A DNA stretch of 64,000 nt from a virus. Position numbers and translations under genes: made by a program. The DNA lies in IMG/VR virus record IMGVR_UViG_3300032397_000003, positions 91,574-155,573 of that record; one strand, given 5' to 3'. This document shows, in pieces, positions 1 through 45,230 of the stretch (the stretch's first letter is position 1; every line of letters starts with the position of its first letter). The notes below the pieces were generated by a model, which did not search any database, had not been told where the DNA came from, and saw only the letters and a program-made list of their open reading frames with translations.

Positions 1-142
1 CATAGTAACTGTTAATTTCGGTGGTAAAATAGTAACCTTAGATGAAAATGCTATAGAGTCTATTCTTGAGTATAAACCTAATAATAACTTTGATCTAGAT
101 GATTTAAAAGGATTATTTGGAATGAAATAATAAGGAGGAAGA

Positions 143-466
143 ATGAATAAAAAATATTTAATAGTAATACTATCTTTAATTATGTTTTCAATAATTCTTG
201 GTTTATGTATAGCGTTTTATACGCACGATAAAATAAATAAATTTGAAGCAAAACTTAAAGAAACTTATTCTGAAGTAGTATATATTAAAAATAGTCAATT
301 TATAGTCTCAGATAAAAAAGGAGATATTCATTTAATAAATATGTCAGGTAAAACTCAAATCTTACTTTCTCTACAGGACATCGAAAGTGGATTAAATAGA
401 GATTTCACTCTAAAGGATATTAGTAAACCAGATTTAAAATTAAAGCATAATTTTACTAATAAATAA
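143..466 (+). CDS. hypothetical membrane-anchored protein
   Basis: ORF with AGGAGG RBS; N-terminal hydrophobic helix (YLIVILSLIMFSIILGLCIAFY). Confidence 0.6.
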   Translation: MNKKYLIVILSLIMFSIILGLCIAFYTHDKINKFEAKLKETYSEVVYIKNSQFIVSDKKGDIHLINMSGKTQILLSLQDIESGLNRDFTLKDISKPDLKLKHNFTNK

Positions 467-480
467 TAAAGAGGGTAAAG

Positions 481-1287
481 ATGAAAAAATGGTTATGGAT
501 TTTTAGTGGATTACTGTTATGCTATACTGTATTATGTATTAGTCTTGCTAATAAGGGATTTGGAGCAGAATATGAAGAAAGTGTAACTAAATATAAAGAT
601 AACTATTTTTTGTTTGGTGATAAAGAAGCTCAAACAAAAGTACAGGTTTCGGTAAAATATAATATTCTTTATCCTTCTGAAACAGGATTTAATTTAGGAT
701 ATACCCAAACAAGTAACTGGATTGTTTATAGTGGAAGAGATACCTTTTATACAATGTATCAACCGGAAGCATTTTTTAATTTTGAATCAGGTAAAAATAT
801 ATTTAAAGATTATATTATTCCTTATGTGGATTATATTCAAGTATCTCCTATATGTCATAATAGTACTGGAGTAGAAGGGGATAATCATAGAAGTATAAAT
901 ATATATTATGCACAAGTACAAGCATCGATTGGTGATGTATATAACTTTGGATTAAATCTAAAAGGTTTTGGTTATTATACAATAGCAGATAAAAATAAAG
1001 ATATAAGAGACTACAAAGGATACTACGAGGCAAAGTTATTTTTTAAGTTAAAAAGTAAAACAGTTGAATACTTAGATAAAGAAGAATTAGCATTTTCATT
1101 TGGTGGTTATGATAAATCGGATTATGATCATACAAGAAAAGGTTGGTTTTGTATAGAGGCTAGATTTAGAATCATAACAACGTATGTACAACCAAAACTA
1201 TTTTGCCAATTTTATCGGGGGTATAATGAGTTCATGGTCCAGTACAACAAAAAAACAAACTCTGTTCGTGTAGGTTTAGTATTTTAA
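481..1287 (+). CDS. pldA: outer-membrane phospholipase A1 (OMPLA/PldA family)
   Basis: Signal peptide; OMPLA-like motifs YKDNYF, KVQVSVKY, GYTQTSNW, YQPE, catalytic HNSTG (cf. HxSNG) followed by RSIN (cf. RSWN), DIRDYKGY, YRGYNE..QYN; C-terminal Phe (VRVGLVF) typical of beta-barrels. Confidence 0.85.
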   Translation: MKKWLWIFSGLLLCYTVLCISLANKGFGAEYEESVTKYKDNYFLFGDKEAQTKVQVSVKYNILYPSETGFNLGYTQTSNWIVYSGRDTFYTMYQPEAFFNFESGKNIFKDYIIPYVDYIQVSPICHNSTGVEGDNHRSINIYYAQVQASIGDVYNFGLNLKGFGYYTIADKNKDIRDYKGYYEAKLFFKLKSKTVEYLDKEELAFSFGGYDKSDYDHTRKGWFCIEARFRIITTYVQPKLFCQFYRGYNEFMVQYNKKTNSVRVGLVF

Positions 1288-1300
1288 AGAGGTAGATTAA

Positions 1301-1717
1301 ATGGTAGTTAAAGAAAAGAAAACAATACTCAATCTAGGCTATGCACAATTATGGACAGCAGCTACGGTGATAGCGGGATTACTTGGTACTCTTTATGCAG
1401 CTGGAATAAAAACAGAAACAGAAATTAAGAAATTTGAGTTGATGAAACAAGCTCAGAAGTATGAAGATCAAATAGCTGAAATAAAAACAATTTCAAGAGA
1501 ATTTGAAGCAGATGCAATTTTCTTTAAAAGCCAATATATAAAAACTCATGCAAGATTGAGTGTATGTATGAAAGAGGACATTTCAAAATATCCATTAGAA
1601 AAATTAACTTCTCCATTTTTAGCTAAAGTAAAAACCTCTTCCACAGAAGAAACCTCGGTTAAGTTTAACGAGAAAGAAATTATTCCTGTCCTGAAGTTAC
1701 AGAGGAAAAAGAAATAA
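1301..1717 (+). CDS. single-TM coiled-coil membrane protein (spanin-like topology possible)
   Basis: N-terminal TM helix followed by a helical charged region with one Cys; directly downstream of the OMPLA gene. Confidence 0.45.
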   Translation: MVVKEKKTILNLGYAQLWTAATVIAGLLGTLYAAGIKTETEIKKFELMKQAQKYEDQIAEIKTISREFEADAIFFKSQYIKTHARLSVCMKEDISKYPLEKLTSPFLAKVKTSSTEETSVKFNEKEIIPVLKLQRKKK

Positions 1718-1751
1718 CCTACTAATTATCTAAAATAGTTGGGGGTTATAT

Positions 1752-2246
1752 ATGAGTAGGATATTTATAGGAGTGGATAATGGGGTCTCAGGAAGTGTGG
1801 GAATTATCTCCGATGAAGAGGTATTATTTTTTCTAACCCCAGTTAAACTTTGTACCAACTATCAAAAGAAAGCAAAGCAGTTAAATAGAATAGATTTTCC
1901 CGCTTTAATAGAAATATTTAAAAATTATCAAGAATTAGATGTAAAGGCTATACTGGAAAGACCGATGGTCAATCCCACAAGATTTGAAGCTACAGCATCA
2001 GCACTTAGAGCATTTGAAGCTACTCTTATTGTATTAGAAGAATTAAATATTTCTCATGAATTTGTAGATAGTAAACAATGGCAAAAAGAAATGCTTCCAA
2101 GTGGATTGAAAGGATCAGAGCAACAAAAGAAAGCTTCTATGGATGTTGCTTGTAGAATGTTTCCTCAATTCAAAGAAGATATTATTAAACATAAAGATGG
2201 GGATGGTCTTCTTATTGCTGAATGGGCTAGAAGGAATAATCTATGA
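1752..2246 (+). CDS. ruvC: RuvC-like Holliday junction resolvase
   Basis: IGVDNGVSGSVG, ILERP, KQWQK and DGLLIA motifs of phage RuvC-like resolvases. Confidence 0.8.
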   Translation: MSRIFIGVDNGVSGSVGIISDEEVLFFLTPVKLCTNYQKKAKQLNRIDFPALIEIFKNYQELDVKAILERPMVNPTRFEATASALRAFEATLIVLEELNISHEFVDSKQWQKEMLPSGLKGSEQQKKASMDVACRMFPQFKEDIIKHKDGDGLLIAEWARRNNL

Positions 2247-2446
2247 GTCACCTTTACGAAACAAGCACTAAAGAAAAATTAGAATTATTTTGTGAGATAA
2301 GAAATATTATACGCGATTGTATTGGTGATTGTGGAAATAACAATTTAATTGTTTTTAAAATAATGATGTTATTAGATGAAAAGACACTAGAGAAAGATAT
2401 CAGATTAAGAAGAGCTTTAGACCAAATTAACCACTCTAGTAATTAA
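2243..2446 (+). CDS. hypothetical protein
   Basis: ATGA-coupled ORF in the operon. Confidence 0.55.
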   Translation: MSHLYETSTKEKLELFCEIRNIIRDCIGDCGNNNLIVFKIMMLLDEKTLEKDIRLRRALDQINHSSN

Positions 2447-2456
2447 AGGGGAAAGT

Positions 2457-2714
2457 ATGTTCCAGTATAAAGTAGATGTATCAAAAGGAGAATCTGAAAT
2501 AGTACAGTTACATGCATTCACTCTTGGATATTTCTGGGAGTTTGATCAATGTAAACAAAATGATAGAAACTTCCCTTGTCATTTACATTCCCACTATTTA
2601 TACTTTAACAAGAATGGTGAAATCTGGTTTTCAGATGATTTACGTTACTTCAGAAATGAAAGAGAACATATGCTTATAACCCCCAGTGATTTTTTGCAAT
2701 TAAATAAAAAATAA
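2457..2714 (+). CDS. hypothetical protein
   Basis: ORF with AGGGG RBS. Confidence 0.55.
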   Translation: MFQYKVDVSKGESEIVQLHAFTLGYFWEFDQCKQNDRNFPCHLHSHYLYFNKNGEIWFSDDLRYFRNEREHMLITPSDFLQLNKK

Positions 2715-2716
2715 TT

Positions 2717-2745
2717 TTTAATTCTTTTTAAAAATTCTATATATT
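2717..2745 (+). promoter_or_regulatory. class II promoter TTTAAT-N12-TTCTA-TATATT (copy 1)
   Basis: Same motif with exact 17-nt spacing also starts at 3480, 5107, 24089 (TTTAAC), 41615, 52160, 56715 and 60082, always upstream of plus-strand genes. Confidence 0.75.
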
Positions 2746-2783
2746 ATAAGTAGAAAAGAAAAATTTAAATAAGGATTAAAATA

Positions 2784-3413
2784 ATGAGAAAATTTCTAAT
2801 ACTATGGTTTATAATTCTACTGGTTGTAAAGTGTTCAAATGAAAAATCAATAACAATAGATCCTCTTATAAATGCTTATAAAGTAGATAATGTTAAACTA
2901 GATAAAAGTATTATTAAAGATAGTTTAAATCATTTTTTACATAAGTATAATAGAAAATGGAGTCAAGAGAATAAACAGAAATGTATAGATGCTTTATACT
3001 ATGGACAACAAGAATTTGATATAGATTACAAGATAGTAATGTCTTTAATTTCTATCGAGAGTCAATATAGAATAGTAGTTACAGGAAAGAATATAAGAAG
3101 AGGAAAAGTCAAATCTATCGATTATGGGCTAACTCAACAGAACTCTAAATATATAAAACAGAGATATAAATCAACAGAGGAGTATCTCAATAAGTATAAA
3201 ATAAAATATACTAATTCAAACTTTGATATTGGAAAGAATATCTTCTCCTGTTATATGTTATTAAGAGATACAAATGAATATGGTTCTTTGATTATGTTTA
3301 GAGACTATATAGCAAGTTATAATGTTGGTATAAGAGGTGTTAGACAAGAACATACTCAGAAAATAGCTGATAAATATTTTAATAAATTTATGAAGGAGCT
3401 TTTAAGCATATGA
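2784..3413 (+). CDS. membrane-anchored lytic transglycosylase (SLT family)
   Basis: SLISIESQY (catalytic Glu), DYGLTQQN, IASYNVG motifs; N-terminal hydrophobic anchor. Confidence 0.8.
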   Translation: MRKFLILWFIILLVVKCSNEKSITIDPLINAYKVDNVKLDKSIIKDSLNHFLHKYNRKWSQENKQKCIDALYYGQQEFDIDYKIVMSLISIESQYRIVVTGKNIRRGKVKSIDYGLTQQNSKYIKQRYKSTEEYLNKYKIKYTNSNFDIGKNIFSCYMLLRDTNEYGSLIMFRDYIASYNVGIRGVRQEHTQKIADKYFNKFMKELLSI

Positions 3414-3479
3414 TAACACTACTTGTTATAATCGCATTGATTACTACCCTACTTATAATTCACAATTGCAAAAACGATT

Positions 3480-3508
3480 TTTAATTCTGATAGATATTTC
3501 TATATATT
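3480..3508 (+). promoter_or_regulatory. class II promoter
   Basis: TTTAAT-N17-TATATT with TTCTA before the -10, upstream of dnaX. Confidence 0.7.
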
Positions 3509-3528
3509 ACAAAAAAGGAGAATAATAA

Positions 3529-4707
3529 ATGAGTAATGATAATACCCTACTTTACAATAAGTATAGACCGAATAAACTTTCAGACGTAGTTGGACATAGT
3601 GCTACTGTAAAAGATTTACAGAAAAGATCAAAAGAAGGTAATCTTCCTAGAGTAATATTTTTATCAGGTATTACTGGAACAGGTAAAACAACTCTACAAA
3701 GAATTATTGCTAAAAATATTCTTTGTCTTAATAAAGATAAAGAAGGGAATAGCTGTAATGTATGTGAGATTTGTTCTTCTATTATAGAGGAGAAGATAAC
3801 AAATTATTATTTTGAGATTAACTGCTCTAATGTTAACATAGATGAGTCAAGACAGATAGCTGAGAATGCATCAGTTAAATCTTTTTCAAATGCTAAAGCA
3901 AAAGTATTCGTTCTCGATGAAGCACAGGAACTTAAAAAATCACAAGCTGCTATGAACAATCTTTTAAAACCAATAGAGAAAGATTATAAAAATGTTTATT
4001 TTATATTTGGTGCCATGGACGATAAATCTGTACCAAAGGCAATCGTTGGTAGGTGTACAACTTATAAACTCAAACCACATAATATGGAAGACATTGCTAC
4101 AAAACTCGCTGATATTTGTCAGAAGGAATCCGTTATATTAGATACAGAAGAAAAAGCTAATGTACTTCTTACTATATCTGAGAATAGTGGTGGAAGTTTA
4201 AGACAAGCAATTAGTTATTTAGAGAGGGTTATATATTCAGAACTATGGACAACTAAACAAGCAATAGAAGAACTTGGTATAGTATCTTCCAGCGAGCTTA
4301 ATCTAAAGATCAATGCTCTGTTTAAAGGTAAGCCAGAAGCATTTGATATTACGTATAATGAAGAACTCCTCACTTCAATAAGATATATGTTTAGTACTAT
4401 GTACAAGAAGTTATCTGGTATAGAAGTAGAAGAATGGCAAGTTAAAAAACTTATGGGAATAGACAAAACCATTACACTAGAACAAGTTGAATATGCTCTT
4501 GGCAAGATTTTTGAATTAAATAAGTTCCCCTATGTTAATCAAGAAATGATCGATTTCATTTTAGTTGATATTTTTAATTATAATAAGAGATATATAAATC
4601 AATTGGTTGAGATGAAAATAGATTCTTATAGAACTCAATCAACTACTCTAAACAAATCAACAGAGTCTAAACAAGCTGAACCAGTTAGAAGAAGGGGGCA
4701 AGCATAG
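3529..4707 (+). CDS. dnaX: DNA polymerase III gamma/tau-like clamp loader subunit
   Basis: LYNKYRP, Walker A GITGTGKTT, Zn module C..CNVCEIC, Walker B VLDEAQ, GRC (SRC), GSLRQA. Confidence 0.9.
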   Translation: MSNDNTLLYNKYRPNKLSDVVGHSATVKDLQKRSKEGNLPRVIFLSGITGTGKTTLQRIIAKNILCLNKDKEGNSCNVCEICSSIIEEKITNYYFEINCSNVNIDESRQIAENASVKSFSNAKAKVFVLDEAQELKKSQAAMNNLLKPIEKDYKNVYFIFGAMDDKSVPKAIVGRCTTYKLKPHNMEDIATKLADICQKESVILDTEEKANVLLTISENSGGSLRQAISYLERVIYSELWTTKQAIEELGIVSSSELNLKINALFKGKPEAFDITYNEELLTSIRYMFSTMYKKLSGIEVEEWQVKKLMGIDKTITLEQVEYALGKIFELNKFPYVNQEMIDFILVDIFNYNKRYINQLVEMKIDSYRTQSTTLNKSTESKQAEPVRRRGQA

Positions 4708-6300: not shown

Positions 6301-7233
6301 ATGAGCTTAATTGTCATAGGGGATATTCATTTAAAAAACAAAGAACCATTTCTGTCTGCATCTAAAAAATTTTTAAATTGGTTGTCTGAAAATTATAACG
6401 AAGAGGATATGATATTTTTGGGGGACTGTTTTGATTCCAGTTCGCCTTTATGGGAAGTATATAAAGTGTTCAAAGAATTTCTTATGAATAGAAAAGCACT
6501 TACATATATACTTAATGGTAATCATGACAAATCGAAAAATAGGGGTTGTTCTTTATCAAGTTTTAATTTACTAGATAATGTTACCGTATTTGAAGAAGAA
6601 GAAGAATGTCAGATAGATATTTTAAATTGTATGTTGTTACCTTTTAAATATAACTATAGAGAGTATGCCGAATTAGAAGGAAAGTATGATTATATATTTT
6701 CTCATATAGTTCCTATTAAAGCTCAATTCTCAAGTGAAGGAATAAAGTTTAAAACCTTACATGGCATATTTATACATGGTCATACCCACATATTCAAAGA
6801 AAAAGACTATTTAGATGAGTATGGAAATAAACACATTATTTTAGGAGTCCCAATCAGCACTCGTCATGCAGAGGATCAACACCATCAGATTATAGAAATA
6901 AATTATGATAGAAATAAAACTTTAGAGTATATAGATGTTCCTTTTTACTTCAAACATGAAACAGTATCTTATGGAGAAGTACCAGAGAGTAAAGAGAATA
7001 TTATAAATGTTATAGATGCTCCAAATAAGAAACTTGTATTTGAAAAGTATAAAGAGTATTATATAAGAGAAGCAGGTATTAAACTATTAAGAACAGAAAA
7101 TACTCAAGGAACATTTAAACAAGAGTTTGAAAGTGCTAACATATTACAGAAGTTTCAAAAGTACTCAGCAGATAAAAATTTATCTAAGGAAGTGTCAGAA
7201 GAATGTTCTACAAGATTGTCTCAAATTATATAA
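6301..7233 (+). CDS. Mre11/SbcD-like recombination nuclease (T4 gp47-like)
   Basis: GDIH, LGDCFD, GNHD and GHTH motifs plus a C-terminal capping region. Confidence 0.75.
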   Translation: MSLIVIGDIHLKNKEPFLSASKKFLNWLSENYNEEDMIFLGDCFDSSSPLWEVYKVFKEFLMNRKALTYILNGNHDKSKNRGCSLSSFNLLDNVTVFEEEEECQIDILNCMLLPFKYNYREYAELEGKYDYIFSHIVPIKAQFSSEGIKFKTLHGIFIHGHTHIFKEKDYLDEYGNKHIILGVPISTRHAEDQHHQIIEINYDRNKTLEYIDVPFYFKHETVSYGEVPESKENIINVIDAPNKKLVFEKYKEYYIREAGIKLLRTENTQGTFKQEFESANILQKFQKYSADKNLSKEVSEECSTRLSQII

Positions 7234-15108: not shown

Positions 15109-15696
15109 CTAGCTTCCATTACAGACGATTAGTATGTCTGTAAATTTTGAATCAGTAGGAAGAAGGTTGACGAGTTTGTATTTATTCCACTTCCAACTGT
15201 TTAAATCATAATCATAAATCAATCTACTAGAACTTATAGAAGGTTTTTTAATTGTTACAAATTCTAATAGATTATCTTCTATATATAGTACTTCTTCATA
15301 TTCAAAACTATTAGTGCTAAATTTTGTATTAAGAAATAATGATAAGGCATCTGTTGTTCCTTCGTTTGGAATTGAGTATACAACTTCAATTTCAGTTATT
15401 CTATTTTCATAATCAGGAATTATATTTAACGCTTGTATAGTCACTTCAGGGGAGAATTCATTCATTAAAGCTGTCATCAATCTCATTTTTAAAGTCATAA
15501 AGTTTTCTGGATTTAATGTCTTAAAAGCAAAATTATCTAATGCCCCTCCTGCAAAAGGATTCATTAAGTATTCTCCTCTCTTGGAGTTTATCCATTGGTT
15601 CATTGCATTCTTAATAGCACTGGCTGCATAATAAGTTACAGGTGTACCATCTTTATTATCCCTACTGTATAAATCTATATCTTGGTAAGTTGACAT
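15109..15696 (-). CDS. baseplate wedge / sheath initiator (gp25-like)
   Basis: AIKNAMNQWINSKRGEYLMNPFAG gp25/gpW motif. Confidence 0.8.
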   Translation of the reverse strand: MSTYQDIDLYSRDNKDGTPVTYYAASAIKNAMNQWINSKRGEYLMNPFAGGALDNFAFKTLNPENFMTLKMRLMTALMNEFSPEVTIQALNIIPDYENRITEIEVVYSIPNEGTTDALSLFLNTKFSTNSFEYEEVLYIEDNLLEFVTIKKPSISSSRLIYDYDLNSWKWNKYKLVNLLPTDSKFTDILIVCNGS

Positions 15697-24152: not shown

Positions 24153-24528
24153 GTGACTAAAGAGCATAAATCAGTATTTGACTATGGAAGATTGTATGAG
24201 ATGTCTAATCTCTTTCCAGAAGATACTGGTTTAAAATTTAAAATTTAAAGTTTGGATTTCAACTAAATCTGGTAGAGAGGGATATAATGCTAGAATTAAA
24301 ATCTCTAATGCAGAGGGTACAGCATCAGTTATGATATGGGGAACCCCTAAAATTAAAGATACAAAAGGTAAGATAACTATTACAGGAAATGACTTGAAAG
24401 ATATAGTTAAATTTGTAGAATTAAATAGGGAAGAACTTTTAAAGCATTGGGGAGGGGAAACAAGCAGTAAACAATTTACAAATGCAATTAAGTCTATTAA
24501 AAAAAATAAAAAAGGAGAAATAAGATGA
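24153..24528 (+). pseudogene. frameshifted DUF4160-like (EMANL family) gene
   Basis: GTG 24153 with AAGGAG RBS reads ...LYEMSNLFPEDTGLKFKI* ; removing one TTTAAAA unit (24230-24250) gives a 122-aa ORF continuing KVWISTKSGREGYNARIK into the 24331 ORF, homologous to 49996 and 53819. Confidence 0.85.
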
Positions 24529-24926
24529 AAAAATTAGTAATGAGTACAGTATTGATGTTTATAGTAGTAGTTGGTTATGCAAAAGAAGTAAGTATATTAG
24601 ATGTAGATTACATAACAAGTTGGAAATTGTTGGGGATGTCTACATGGGGTAGTGATGAATATACAAATGGAGATATGAGAATAGCGGCAGTAATAGAAGC
24701 CGATCAAATTACTCTTGTAGGTATTGATGATATACCCCAAAAGATTAAAGAAGTGACTACAGCCATTGATGAAGAGGGTCTTAAAGTAACAACTATTAAA
24801 ATGGAAGGTAATAAATTCTATTATACTATTAAGCGAATCAGCTCAAATTCCATTATGTTTAAATTGATATTTGTTAAAAGTGGTAACGAGAGATTAAGAT
24901 ATATTCTGGGTAATGAAGAGCAGTAA
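24525..24926 (+). CDS. exported hypothetical protein
   Basis: Sec signal peptide (MKKLVMSTVLMFIVVVGYA). Confidence 0.6.
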   Translation: MKKLVMSTVLMFIVVVGYAKEVSILDVDYITSWKLLGMSTWGSDEYTNGDMRIAAVIEADQITLVGIDDIPQKIKEVTTAIDEEGLKVTTIKMEGNKFYYTIKRISSNSIMFKLIFVKSGNERLRYILGNEEQ

Positions 24927-25025: not shown

Positions 25026-26396
25026 ATGAACAGTTTAAAAAGTTTAATTTGTATGGTTATTCTATCTGCATTTGTAGCATGTTCAGGAGGAGGTTCTGGG
25101 GAATCAACAGTAACTTATGTAAATAATACCCCAATAGTAGATACCGGTACTCCGGTAACTTTTCAAGGTACAATCGAAAAAGGGGCATTGCAAAGAGGGT
25201 CTAGAGTTATTGCATCAGAATGGAATGTATTAACTGGTTATTCGGGACTATGCTTTAAAACATATACCACTGATGATAAAGGAAGTTACACAATTAAAAG
25301 TTCTAAAATAAAGGATATGATAGATGTTGAAGCAGAGGGATATTTTTTTAACGAAAACGATGCTTCTACGAACAATAAAATTATATTATATGGTTTACTA
25401 GACAGTAATAAAGCAACTTGGAATATCAATATTTTAACTCATATTATAAGATATAGAGTTATAAAACTTTTAGAGGATGATGTTGATTTTGATGATGCAG
25501 TTACAAGTGCTGTTACCTCACTTTATAATAATTTAGGATGGGGAGTTGTAGATCCCTCTTTAATAAATGCAGTTGACAATCCACAATTATTATTTCTATC
25601 TAGTGCTATATGTAAAAATAGAACAGCTTCAGAAGTATCTAAACTATTAACTGATTTATCTTTAGACTTAGAGGATGGAAATATAGATATATCTATGCTT
25701 AATTCTTCTTTCGCTCTAGTGAATACAGCAACAGTAACTTCTAATATCATTGCAAAATATGGTAGTTGTCCTAATCTTGCAAATGTTAAATCTCAAGTAT
25801 TAGCTCAAAGAGGATTAGTGGATATAACCATTAAAATATTTACTGCTTCACCTATACCTTACTCTGGGGTAGATTGGTATATAAGAAATGCATCGAGTAT
25901 AATGTATATGAAAGATAATAAATTAGATAGTTTAGCCTCACTCCAGGTATCTATGTCTCATCTTGGAGTAACTACGAATAATATATCTAATAATATTCTA
26001 GAATTTTTTAGTATTACGGTTGATGGAGTAAAAACACTTTATTTTTCTCTGGGTTTTGAATCTAATAATATTATTAAACACTATAAGCAAGTAAATGGTA
26101 TTGTTACCGAGATATCTAGTTTACCTACAAAGCCTGTACCGGTTATTCAAACCCTTAATAATGGATTTTATAATTATTCAAATCCTAATCTATTAGATAG
26201 TAATTCCCATAGTTGGAACATAGGTACTTTATATGGATATAAGATATGTGAGGACTTTATTGAAGGTACGCTTCATAGAGGAAAAACAATATTTGTAGAA
26301 CAAGGAGCTGCGGGTATAAAAATATTAGGTTCTTATTGTGACTATACAGCAGATGGGGGATTTTTATATGGCACCTCTAACGCTAGATTTTGGTAA
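25026..26396 (+). CDS. lipoprotein
   Basis: Lipobox FVAC followed by SGGGSG; GTIEKG..GS.V, VEAEGYFFNE and NINILTHI motifs resemble the N-terminal region of Fibrobacter-type surface lipoproteins (by eye). Confidence 0.7.
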   Translation: MNSLKSLICMVILSAFVACSGGGSGESTVTYVNNTPIVDTGTPVTFQGTIEKGALQRGSRVIASEWNVLTGYSGLCFKTYTTDDKGSYTIKSSKIKDMIDVEAEGYFFNENDASTNNKIILYGLLDSNKATWNINILTHIIRYRVIKLLEDDVDFDDAVTSAVTSLYNNLGWGVVDPSLINAVDNPQLLFLSSAICKNRTASEVSKLLTDLSLDLEDGNIDISMLNSSFALVNTATVTSNIIAKYGSCPNLANVKSQVLAQRGLVDITIKIFTASPIPYSGVDWYIRNASSIMYMKDNKLDSLASLQVSMSHLGVTTNNISNNILEFFSITVDGVKTLYFSLGFESNNIIKHYKQVNGIVTEISSLPTKPVPVIQTLNNGFYNYSNPNLLDSNSHSWNIGTLYGYKICEDFIEGTLHRGKTIFVEQGAAGIKILGSYCDYTADGGFLYGTSNARFW

Positions 26397-44792: not shown

Positions 44793-45230
44793 CTATAATA
44801 ATATTAGTAAAAGAAAAACTAATAATCCTCCAGCTATAGGAAAACCAACTTCAGCAACATCTCTATATATGATTCTCCATTCTGGTAATCCTTTTGATTT
44901 ATCATTATCTATATTGAGATTCAGATTGGCTACTATATAGTTTAACTCTCTTCCTTCTTTATCTTTCCATATAATTTTAATATTTGTTGTATATAGTCCA
45001 TCTATTTTAGATGCTACTACTTTATCACATTCTATTGTAACTCTATTTTCTTTTTGTGCTAACATAAGTTCTACATACTGCTCTGATCCTATTACAAGAT
45101 TCTCATATTGATCAGGAGTCATTCTTCCTATTGCTATACCATTCTGGGATATAACTATATCATTTGATTTAGCATGAAGTAATCCTGTAAAACATATTAG
45201 AAGCATTATTGCTATGATTAGTTTTTTCAT
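44793..45230 (-). CDS. exported protein with C-terminal TM helix (candidate lysis/spanin-type protein)
   Basis: N-terminal signal peptide, beta-rich middle, C-terminal GFPIAGGLLVFLLLILL. Confidence 0.5.
   Translation of the reverse strand: MKKLIIAIMLLICFTGLLHAKSNDIVISQNGIAIGRMTPDQYENLVIGSEQYVELMLAQKENRVTIECDKVVASKIDGLYTTNIKIIWKDKEGRELNYIVANLNLNIDNDKSKGLPEWRIIYRDVAEVGFPIAGGLLVFLLLILL

Follow-up and report, generated by a model that had tools for sequence, protein, structure and literature searches.

Why should a bacteriophage carry a phospholipase A of the outer membrane (OMPLA)? Lysophospholipids made by the host's own OMPLA permeabilise the outer membrane for colicin release, and a gene for an apparent member of the same family, here named PLA1, lies near the start of a 64,000-nucleotide (nt) stretch of viral DNA (the window), which forms the final 64 kb of the 155,573-bp virus record IMGVR_UViG_3300032397_000003 (positions 91,574 to 155,573). 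An earlier note, made from the letters of this DNA, had read the gene as a phage-encoded OMPLA behind a late promoter motif and had suggested that the phage may use it late in infection to breach the outer membrane. In the analysis presented here, PLA1 emerges as a predicted OMPLA-family β-barrel belonging to a phage-only clade, in which the residues that hold the catalytic calcium in Escherichia coli OMPLA are commonly replaced as a pair. The elements of the locus on which the argument rests are the following (window coordinates):

481–1287, plus strand: OMPLA-type phospholipase A gene (PLA1), 268 amino acids (aa), identified by PF02253, an AlphaFold (AF2) model, Foldseek and residue mapping
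454–462, plus strand: promoter-like motif TACTAATAA, 27 nt before the PLA1 ATG, overlapping the final codons of the upstream open reading frame (ORF)
471–475, plus strand: GAGGG ribosome-binding site, separated from the ATG of PLA1 by 5 nt, read from the sequence

PLA1 is a predicted OMPLA-family barrel

PLA1 matches the Pfam profile PF02253 with an E value of 2e-21 and 77.2 bits against a cut-off of 27, over profile positions 50–256 of 257, and OMPLA proteins of solved structure are matched by sequence at E values of about 1e-5. The AF2 model, built from 23 homologues, has a mean predicted local distance difference test (pLDDT) score of 86.5 and contains 13 strand segments as assigned by DSSP. 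Among PDB structures searched with Foldseek, the eight top matches are all OMPLA (E 5e-11 to 5e-10, template modelling (TM) score 0.68–0.76), the best of them including 1qd5 (E 5e-11, TM 0.70–0.76), and the matches that follow are unrelated porins with E values above 3e-3. Both the profile search and the predicted fold, a barrel of the OMPLA type, agree with the identity proposed in the earlier note, and the features on which that proposal relied, namely the signal peptide, the HNSTG motif, the Asn position of RSIN and the C-terminal Phe, are all present in the translation.

The catalytic triad is composed of His126 (nt 856–858), Ser128 (nt 862–864) and Asn140 (nt 898–900), which correspond to His142, Ser144 and Asn156 in the alignment with Salmonella PldA and in E. 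coli numbering. HNSTG spans residues 126–130 (nt 856–870) and RSIN residues 137–140 (nt 889–900). The signal peptide, as read from the sequence, covers approximately residues 1–28, starting with MKK and a hydrophobic stretch and ending in ...SLANKGFG/AEY, a point at which the homologues align with cleavage-type sites of the form ...YA/xEY; at the other end of the protein, the last residue is Phe268. Residues equivalent to those of the OMPLA dimer interface are also kept, with Gln76, Tyr74 and Phe89 standing for Gln94, Tyr92 and Phe109. The model and the residue mapping together identify PLA1 as a genuine OMPLA-family β-barrel with an intact triad. The NCBIfam equivalog model for PldA (NF008031) gives it 37.8 bits, which fails the cut-off of 369, and by its sequence PLA1 is classed as a distant member of the OMPLA family, not as an orthologue of the enterobacterial PldA.

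PLA1 belongs to a complete phage genome

The virus record has a 127-bp direct terminal repeat and a CheckV completeness of 100%. Its genes for a tail sheath, a tape-measure-like protein and baseplate-wedge proteins identify the phage as a myovirus; it also encodes a full-length anaerobic ribonucleotide reductase, NrdD (genome positions 64331–66349). No tyrosine integrase was found in the phage genome, which makes lysogenic conversion unlikely. Phage genes lie on either side of PLA1, and the base composition of the gene (GC 28.1%, and 16.4% at third codon positions) falls within the distribution of the phage genes (29.6 ± 3.3% and 17.7 ± 3.7%). The locus is also present in an independent IMG/VR contig, and the DNA of the phage was detected in at least eight sediment metagenome runs.

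The PLA1 gene belongs to the complete phage genome and is not host DNA, which confirms the description of it as phage-encoded. The competing possibility that this part of the contig is host DNA, which the earlier note had named among the findings that would overturn its reading, or an assembly artefact is contradicted by the terminal repeat, the flanking phage genes, the composition and the recurrence of the locus; no support for it was found, and it can be regarded as effectively excluded. The bacterial genome collection points the same way, as it gave no relative for the query alone and, for the clade alignment, a single match of 36% identity. This sole match of the host search lies on an 8.2-kb contig with a GC content of 25% (L010, JAUXFB010000041.1) that was binned in a metagenome-assembled genome of Aminicenantes, a phylum in which only 3 of 151 genomes give matches, two of them weak. 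The contig encodes a homologue of the window ORF 6301–7233, it has ORFs that start with leaders of the ...ERYKPLFE type, which resemble the MKRY leaders of the phage studied here, and it is probably a mis-binned related phage. Assignment of a host from the tail sheath and the clamp loader yielded no answer, since these proteins are at most about 35% identical to those of cultured phages of many different hosts.

In a nearly identical strain (L002/L011, 97% identical), the PLA1 codons differ by five synonymous and two non-synonymous changes. A more diverged relative, contig L016, conserves the gene order PLA1 (57% identity), a downstream membrane protein, an 85-aa protein, a gene similar to lytic transglycosylases of the SLT type (53%) and the clamp loader (69%), and PLA1 has therefore long been retained in this phage lineage. 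Between its SLT-like gene and its clamp-loader gene, the strain L011 (97–99% identical) has an additional segment of about 3.5 kb (L011:4643–8112 against window 3413–3529), which is missing from the window.

A phage-only clade of OMPLA

A search of 5.8 billion proteins returned 35 relatives of PLA1 with 42–99% identity, all of them metagenomic and none from NCBI or UniRef, and an exhaustive HMMER search returned 530 representatives at E ≤ 1e-3. In a FastTree phylogeny of 185 sequences, PLA1 falls in a clade of 43 rows with a Shimodaira–Hasegawa-like support of 94, a provisional value, as FastTree yields no bootstrap. The gene contexts of all 13 clade loci checked are phage-like, with neighbours including terminase and portal genes, tail fibres, DnaB, the alpha subunit of DNA polymerase III, RecA and homing endonucleases. 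Within the contexts examined, the clade is phage-only. Just outside of it are chromosomal bacterial genes (L020 and L022); in a bacterial relative with 39% identity (L020:8001–10504 and L023), pldA adjoins a RecQ-type helicase gene as in Salmonella, which marks it as a chromosomal pldA. Other phage copies, in L021 and L010, also fall outside the 43-row clade. The nearest cluster in the ESM Atlas is labelled 71% viral.

The phospholipase had been called an unusual cargo for a lytic phage, and the databases bear this out. PLA1 matches no PHROG family and nothing in PADLOC, and its model has no match at E ≤ 1e-3 among the predicted viral structures of BFVD. A tblastn search of 50,697 GenBank phage records revealed no genuine phage with PLA1, the matches being mis-filed bacterial contigs and one unverified 4.3-kb fragment. 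AGRM01000003.1, AFYI01000004.1, CAKLQH020000031.1 and CAKLQF020000008.1 were considered as cases of phage-borne pldA and rejected, as they resemble contigs of bacterial chromosomes entered under phage. A literature search with limited coverage of subscription journals found no description of a phage-encoded OMPLA.

The calcium ligands are replaced in the phage clade

The ligands of the catalytic calcium of E. coli OMPLA are Ser152 and the backbone of Arg147 in one chain and Ser106 in its partner, as listed for structure 1QD6 (bioRxiv 10.1101/2020.01.08.898262). PLA1 has His136 (nt 886–888) in place of Ser152, Arg86 (nt 736–738) in place of Ser106 and Val131 in place of Arg147. In the alignment of 185 sequences, 31 of the 43 clade members combine Arg or Lys at position 106 with His at position 152. 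This pair is absent from all 142 sequences outside the clade, about 115 of which keep Ser at both positions. Seven clade members have both Ser152 and Ser106, and these also retain the ancestral SNG(R/K) motif. The joint change is unlikely to be the product of drift, because the two residues, which come from opposite monomers, meet at one site. This replacement in the phage clade went unnoticed in the earlier note.

Two readings of the altered site may be considered. The replacement of ligands that E. coli OMPLA requires for catalysis, together with the rejection of PLA1 by the PldA equivalog model, could mean that the classical activity was lost and that the barrel has acquired a function other than lipolysis, such as anchoring the downstream membrane protein or forming a pore. 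Against such a loss stands the conservation of the active site, as the His and Ser of the triad are invariant across the 185 sequences and the Asn is present in 40 of the 43 clade members (the equivalent of Gln94 is present in 41 of 43). Because these residues persist in clade clusters that are only about 50–60% identical, retained catalysis can be argued, and a non-lipolytic barrel appears distinctly improbable. That PLA1 is instead a catalytically competent, phage-adapted outer-membrane phospholipase A is suggested by its sequence, tentatively and at slightly below an even chance. In such an enzyme, the Arg/His replacement probably changes how the phage OMPLA is switched on, for example in that calcium might no longer be needed; a positive side chain may replace the metal, or activation may be rewired in another way.

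A promoter-like motif shared with tail genes

The TACTAATAA 9-mer before PLA1 occurs in 15 copies in the window, where 3.6 are expected, and none of 100 shuffles reaches 15. Genome-wide, 25 of the 44 copies of TACTAATA lie 18–50 nt upstream of a start codon on the same strand, against 1.1 expected, and permuted 8-mers of the same composition have a mean of 0.86 at such positions. The motif precedes the genes for the tail sheath, the tape-measure-like protein and a baseplate-wedge protein, and the 27-nt leader of PLA1 is nearly identical to the leader of the baseplate-wedge gene at 15109–15696. It stands before 5 of the 16 genes of the tail block, 14 of the 56 genes of the first block and 7 of the 98 genes of the replication block in which PLA1 lies. 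No intrinsic terminator was found around PLA1 (window 1–4000).

These counts identify the motif as a real promoter-like class of the phage, common to virion genes. Of the earlier claim of a late promoter, the promoter-like element and its sharing with tail genes have stood; the label "late" is a reasonable inference from the genes it precedes, and the motif is also found upstream of non-structural genes, including those for a DHH phosphoesterase and a ClpP-like protease.

The likely timing bears on a further explanation, in which PLA1 would serve superinfection exclusion or the formation of decoys: an altered outer membrane or the shedding of vesicles would cause competitors to adsorb poorly, or would keep progeny from being lost on debris. 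Phage outer-membrane proteins with exclusion roles are known. Mutations of pldA in Bordetella are described as affecting vesiculation (PMC9743053). However, exclusion genes are usually early, whereas the motif before PLA1 is common to tail genes; the unlikelihood of lysogenic conversion argues in the same direction, and nothing in these data points to exclusion in particular. This explanation is considered improbable.

Genes beside PLA1 and the search for lysis genes

Genes for three small membrane proteins, all bitopic, flank PLA1, and the SLT-like gene follows 1.5 kb downstream. The neighbours that matter here are:

143–466, plus strand: upstream neighbour of 107 aa with one N-terminal transmembrane segment, from a hydropathy scan
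1301–1717, plus strand: downstream neighbour of 138 aa, which begins 13 nt past the PLA1 stop, from the sequence
2784–3413, plus strand: candidate secreted SLT-like lytic transglycosylase of 209 aa (Pfam SLT, E 2.6e-4, 21.0 bits against a cut-off of 21.3)

The upstream neighbour has a best Pfam E value of 0.058, below the cut-off, and no match in PHROG, NCBIfam or PADLOC; we infer that it is part of the same system as PLA1. The downstream neighbour, which has no family match in these four collections, starts with a hydrophobic segment rich in Gly and Ala, after which comes a charged region of helical appearance when judged by eye, and thus resembles an inner-membrane spanin (i-spanin) in topology only. 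It adjoins PLA1 in the related contig L016 too. As a widespread partner of PLA1 it was rejected, since just one other homologue was present among the 5.8 billion proteins. The translation of the SLT-like gene displays the ES, GLTQ and SYNVG motifs of lytic transglycosylases, and its product is the best candidate for an endolysin found in the genome. When the phage genome itself was searched for Amidase_2, Phage_lysozyme and SLT, nothing was found; these are weak negatives, as the SLT search missed the 21-bit match found by hmmscan. In L016, a holin-like protein of 99 aa with two transmembrane segments (3616–3915) is encoded directly before the SLT-like gene (4020–4640); the window has no equivalent before 2784–3413.

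A six-frame lipobox scan of the 155,573 bases revealed one credible lipoprotein only, of 456 aa (window 25026–26396, plus strand), with the lipobox FVAC followed by a linker rich in Gly and Ser. Because this sole lipobox protein is 456 aa long, the genome is without a candidate for an outer-membrane (o-) or unimolecular (u-) spanin; the former would be a lipoprotein of about 40–130 aa and the latter a lipoprotein with a transmembrane segment at its C-terminus. The lipoprotein gene sits just after the gene for a secreted protein of 133 aa (24525–24926, plus strand), upstream of a glycan-synthesis island, and neither protein has a family match. In a comparison with PHROGs, spanin families included, none of some 15 small phage proteins, either secreted or located in the membrane, had a match. 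Elsewhere in the window, a protein of 145 aa (44793–45230, minus strand) combines an N-terminal signal sequence with a C-terminal transmembrane segment, a u-spanin-like topology, and has no lipobox and no PHROG match; its gene adjoins an ORF of 416 aa, just past which is an ORF of 77 aa with a single transmembrane segment.

PLA1 neighbourhoods in related phages

In four related loci, PLA1 adjoins a gene of one papain-like peptidase family (L013:7222–7779, L004:7289–7798, L017:7420–7986 and L015:8775–9338). These proteins are 169–188 aa long, share an invariant Cys53, His143, Asp160 and Arg164 and have no signal peptide, and their model (pLDDT 96) reaches Z scores of 9.0–9.3 to C39 peptidases, staphopain and the pseudomurein endoisopeptidase PeiR. 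As the PLA1 neighbours in L004, L013 and L017 have no convincing annotation in Pfam or PHROG, the peptidase label rests on the fold and on the invariant Cys, His and Asp. On the basis of the model, the family is a candidate cysteine-peptidase endolysin or processing enzyme. Genes for small membrane proteins lie beside that of the peptidase or PLA1 in L004, L013 and L017, and in L013 and L017 a lipoprotein gene follows just after PLA1 (precursors of 84–110 aa, by a simpler lipobox test). By analogy, these three loci are laid out much like a lysis cassette. L030 has an Amidase_2 gene at a distance of 2.3 kb from PLA1.

The gene contexts also bear on whether PLA1 might maintain or remodel the envelope, either by removing stray phospholipids from the outer leaflet and so keeping the outer membrane intact until programmed lysis, or by recycling lipids. 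Maintenance is the established role of bacterial PldA; PLA1 lies among genes of replication or nucleotide metabolism in the phage studied here, in L009 and in L021, and its varied position between phages looks accessory. A housekeeping enzyme would, however, be expected to have the ancestral calcium site, both ligands of which the phage clade has replaced. The promoter-like motif common to tail genes and the peptidase, membrane-protein and lipoprotein genes beside PLA1 in the four relatives also fit a maintenance role poorly, and this role is judged unlikely.

In five phage loci, a peptide of 48–67 aa that resembles the glycyl-radical C-terminus of anaerobic ribonucleotide reductase (PF13597) adjoins PLA1 or is encoded near it:

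L004:8759–8905
L013:8750–8917
L019:7348–7509, minus strand
L021:8714–8917
L030:9928–10110, minus strand

This peptide may be a spare-part radical domain; the phage of the window has the full-length NrdD instead.

A possible role in outer-membrane disruption

A role of PLA1 in disrupting the outer membrane at lysis is plausible on circumstantial evidence, and we hold it possible at just short of an even chance. The signal peptide and the C-terminal Phe of PLA1 suggest export by Sec, after which the β-barrel assembly machinery (BAM) would insert the protein into the host outer membrane. The protein would probably accumulate late, being transcribed from the promoter-like motif common to tail genes. 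It could then hydrolyse outer-membrane phospholipids to lysophospholipids and fatty acids and thereby weaken the outer membrane, which would complete or speed lysis once the cell wall is cut. PLA1 would in this way be an enzymatic counterpart of the spanins and would echo the use of the host OMPLA by colicin lysis proteins.

Several points weigh against such a role. E. coli OMPLA is dormant in intact membranes, and its expression alone need not be lytic. PLA1 is located within an extended block of genes for replication and repair, with a resolvase and the clamp loader, and not in a compact lysis cassette, and the motif in front of it is shared with the non-structural genes named above. At L007, L009, L018, L021 and L031, which makes at least five carrier loci, no recognisable lysis-type neighbour was found, and in some other carriers PLA1 is surrounded by genes for replication or for tail fibres. 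The papain-like neighbour, a candidate endolysin, might instead be a leader peptidase; its Z scores of about 9 are tied among three kinds of enzyme. In L013 and L017, the adjacent lipoproteins would mean that PLA1 accompanies a spanin-like component and does not replace it.

Relation to known systems and significance

PLA1 belongs to the Pfam family of OMPLA and to none of the families of colicin lysis proteins, spanins, phiKT gp28 or LysB. With OMPLA of E. coli and Salmonella (PldA; PF02253; 1QD5, 1QD6, 7EZZ) it shares the family, the barrel fold, the triad, the interface residues, the signal peptide and the C-terminal Phe. It differs from them in being only about 22% identical and phage-encoded, in the changes of Ser152 to His, Ser106 to Arg and Arg147 to Val, and in the absence of the long N-terminal extension. 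Colicin lysis proteins (bacteriocin release proteins) resemble the proposed system in that the outer membrane is permeabilised via lysophospholipids made by OMPLA, and the lipoprotein genes after PLA1 in L013 and L017 extend the likeness. In the phage, however, the mobile element carries the enzyme itself, the genome of the window has no small lipoprotein, and the L013 and L017 precursors are much longer than colicin lysis proteins.

Spanins, such as Rz/Rz1 of lambda and gp11 of T1, would share with PLA1 the proposed step, namely disrupting the outer membrane as the final act of lysis, and the 138-aa neighbour has, by eye, a topology similar to that of an i-spanin. Spanins nevertheless act by membrane fusion and are not enzymes, and an o-spanin is a lipoprotein, whereas PLA1 is a predicted β-barrel without a lipobox. 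Lom and Bor of lambda and the barrels in BFVD are likewise phage products inserted in the host outer membrane, but they are not enzymes of the OMPLA family. A precedent for disruption by means other than a spanin is LysB of mycobacteriophages, which acts as a lipolytic enzyme to detach the outer membrane of mycobacteria; unlike PLA1, it is a soluble cutinase-like esterase that acts on mycolyl-arabinogalactan and not an integral barrel. A second precedent is the "disruptin" gp28 of phiKT, which is described, in the preprint that puts phages of Gram-negative bacteria without a recognisable spanin at about 15% (bioRxiv 10.1101/515445), as disrupting the outer membrane; gp28 differs from PLA1 in being a cationic peptide and not an integral outer-membrane barrel.

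The most far-reaching interpretation is that the phage-only clade with the Arg/His pair constitutes a new class of enzymatic lysis protein, independent of calcium, with an arginine of the partner monomer in the place of the metal. Late in the cycle, as infection ends, such a protein would break down the outer membrane and, in phages like that of the window, take over from spanins. Read from sequence comparison, this would be a rather doubtful proposition.

To our knowledge, the way in which phages without a recognisable spanin breach the outer membrane is mostly unexplained. If the role in lysis is true, a phage OMPLA would be a simple enzymatic answer to this problem, and with PLA1 the enzyme on which colicin release depends would for the first time be known from a phage. 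The paired serine replacement, specific to the phage clade, offers a direct handle on how OMPLA is switched on, and the PLA1 gene is a useful metagenome marker for phages of bacteria with an outer membrane.

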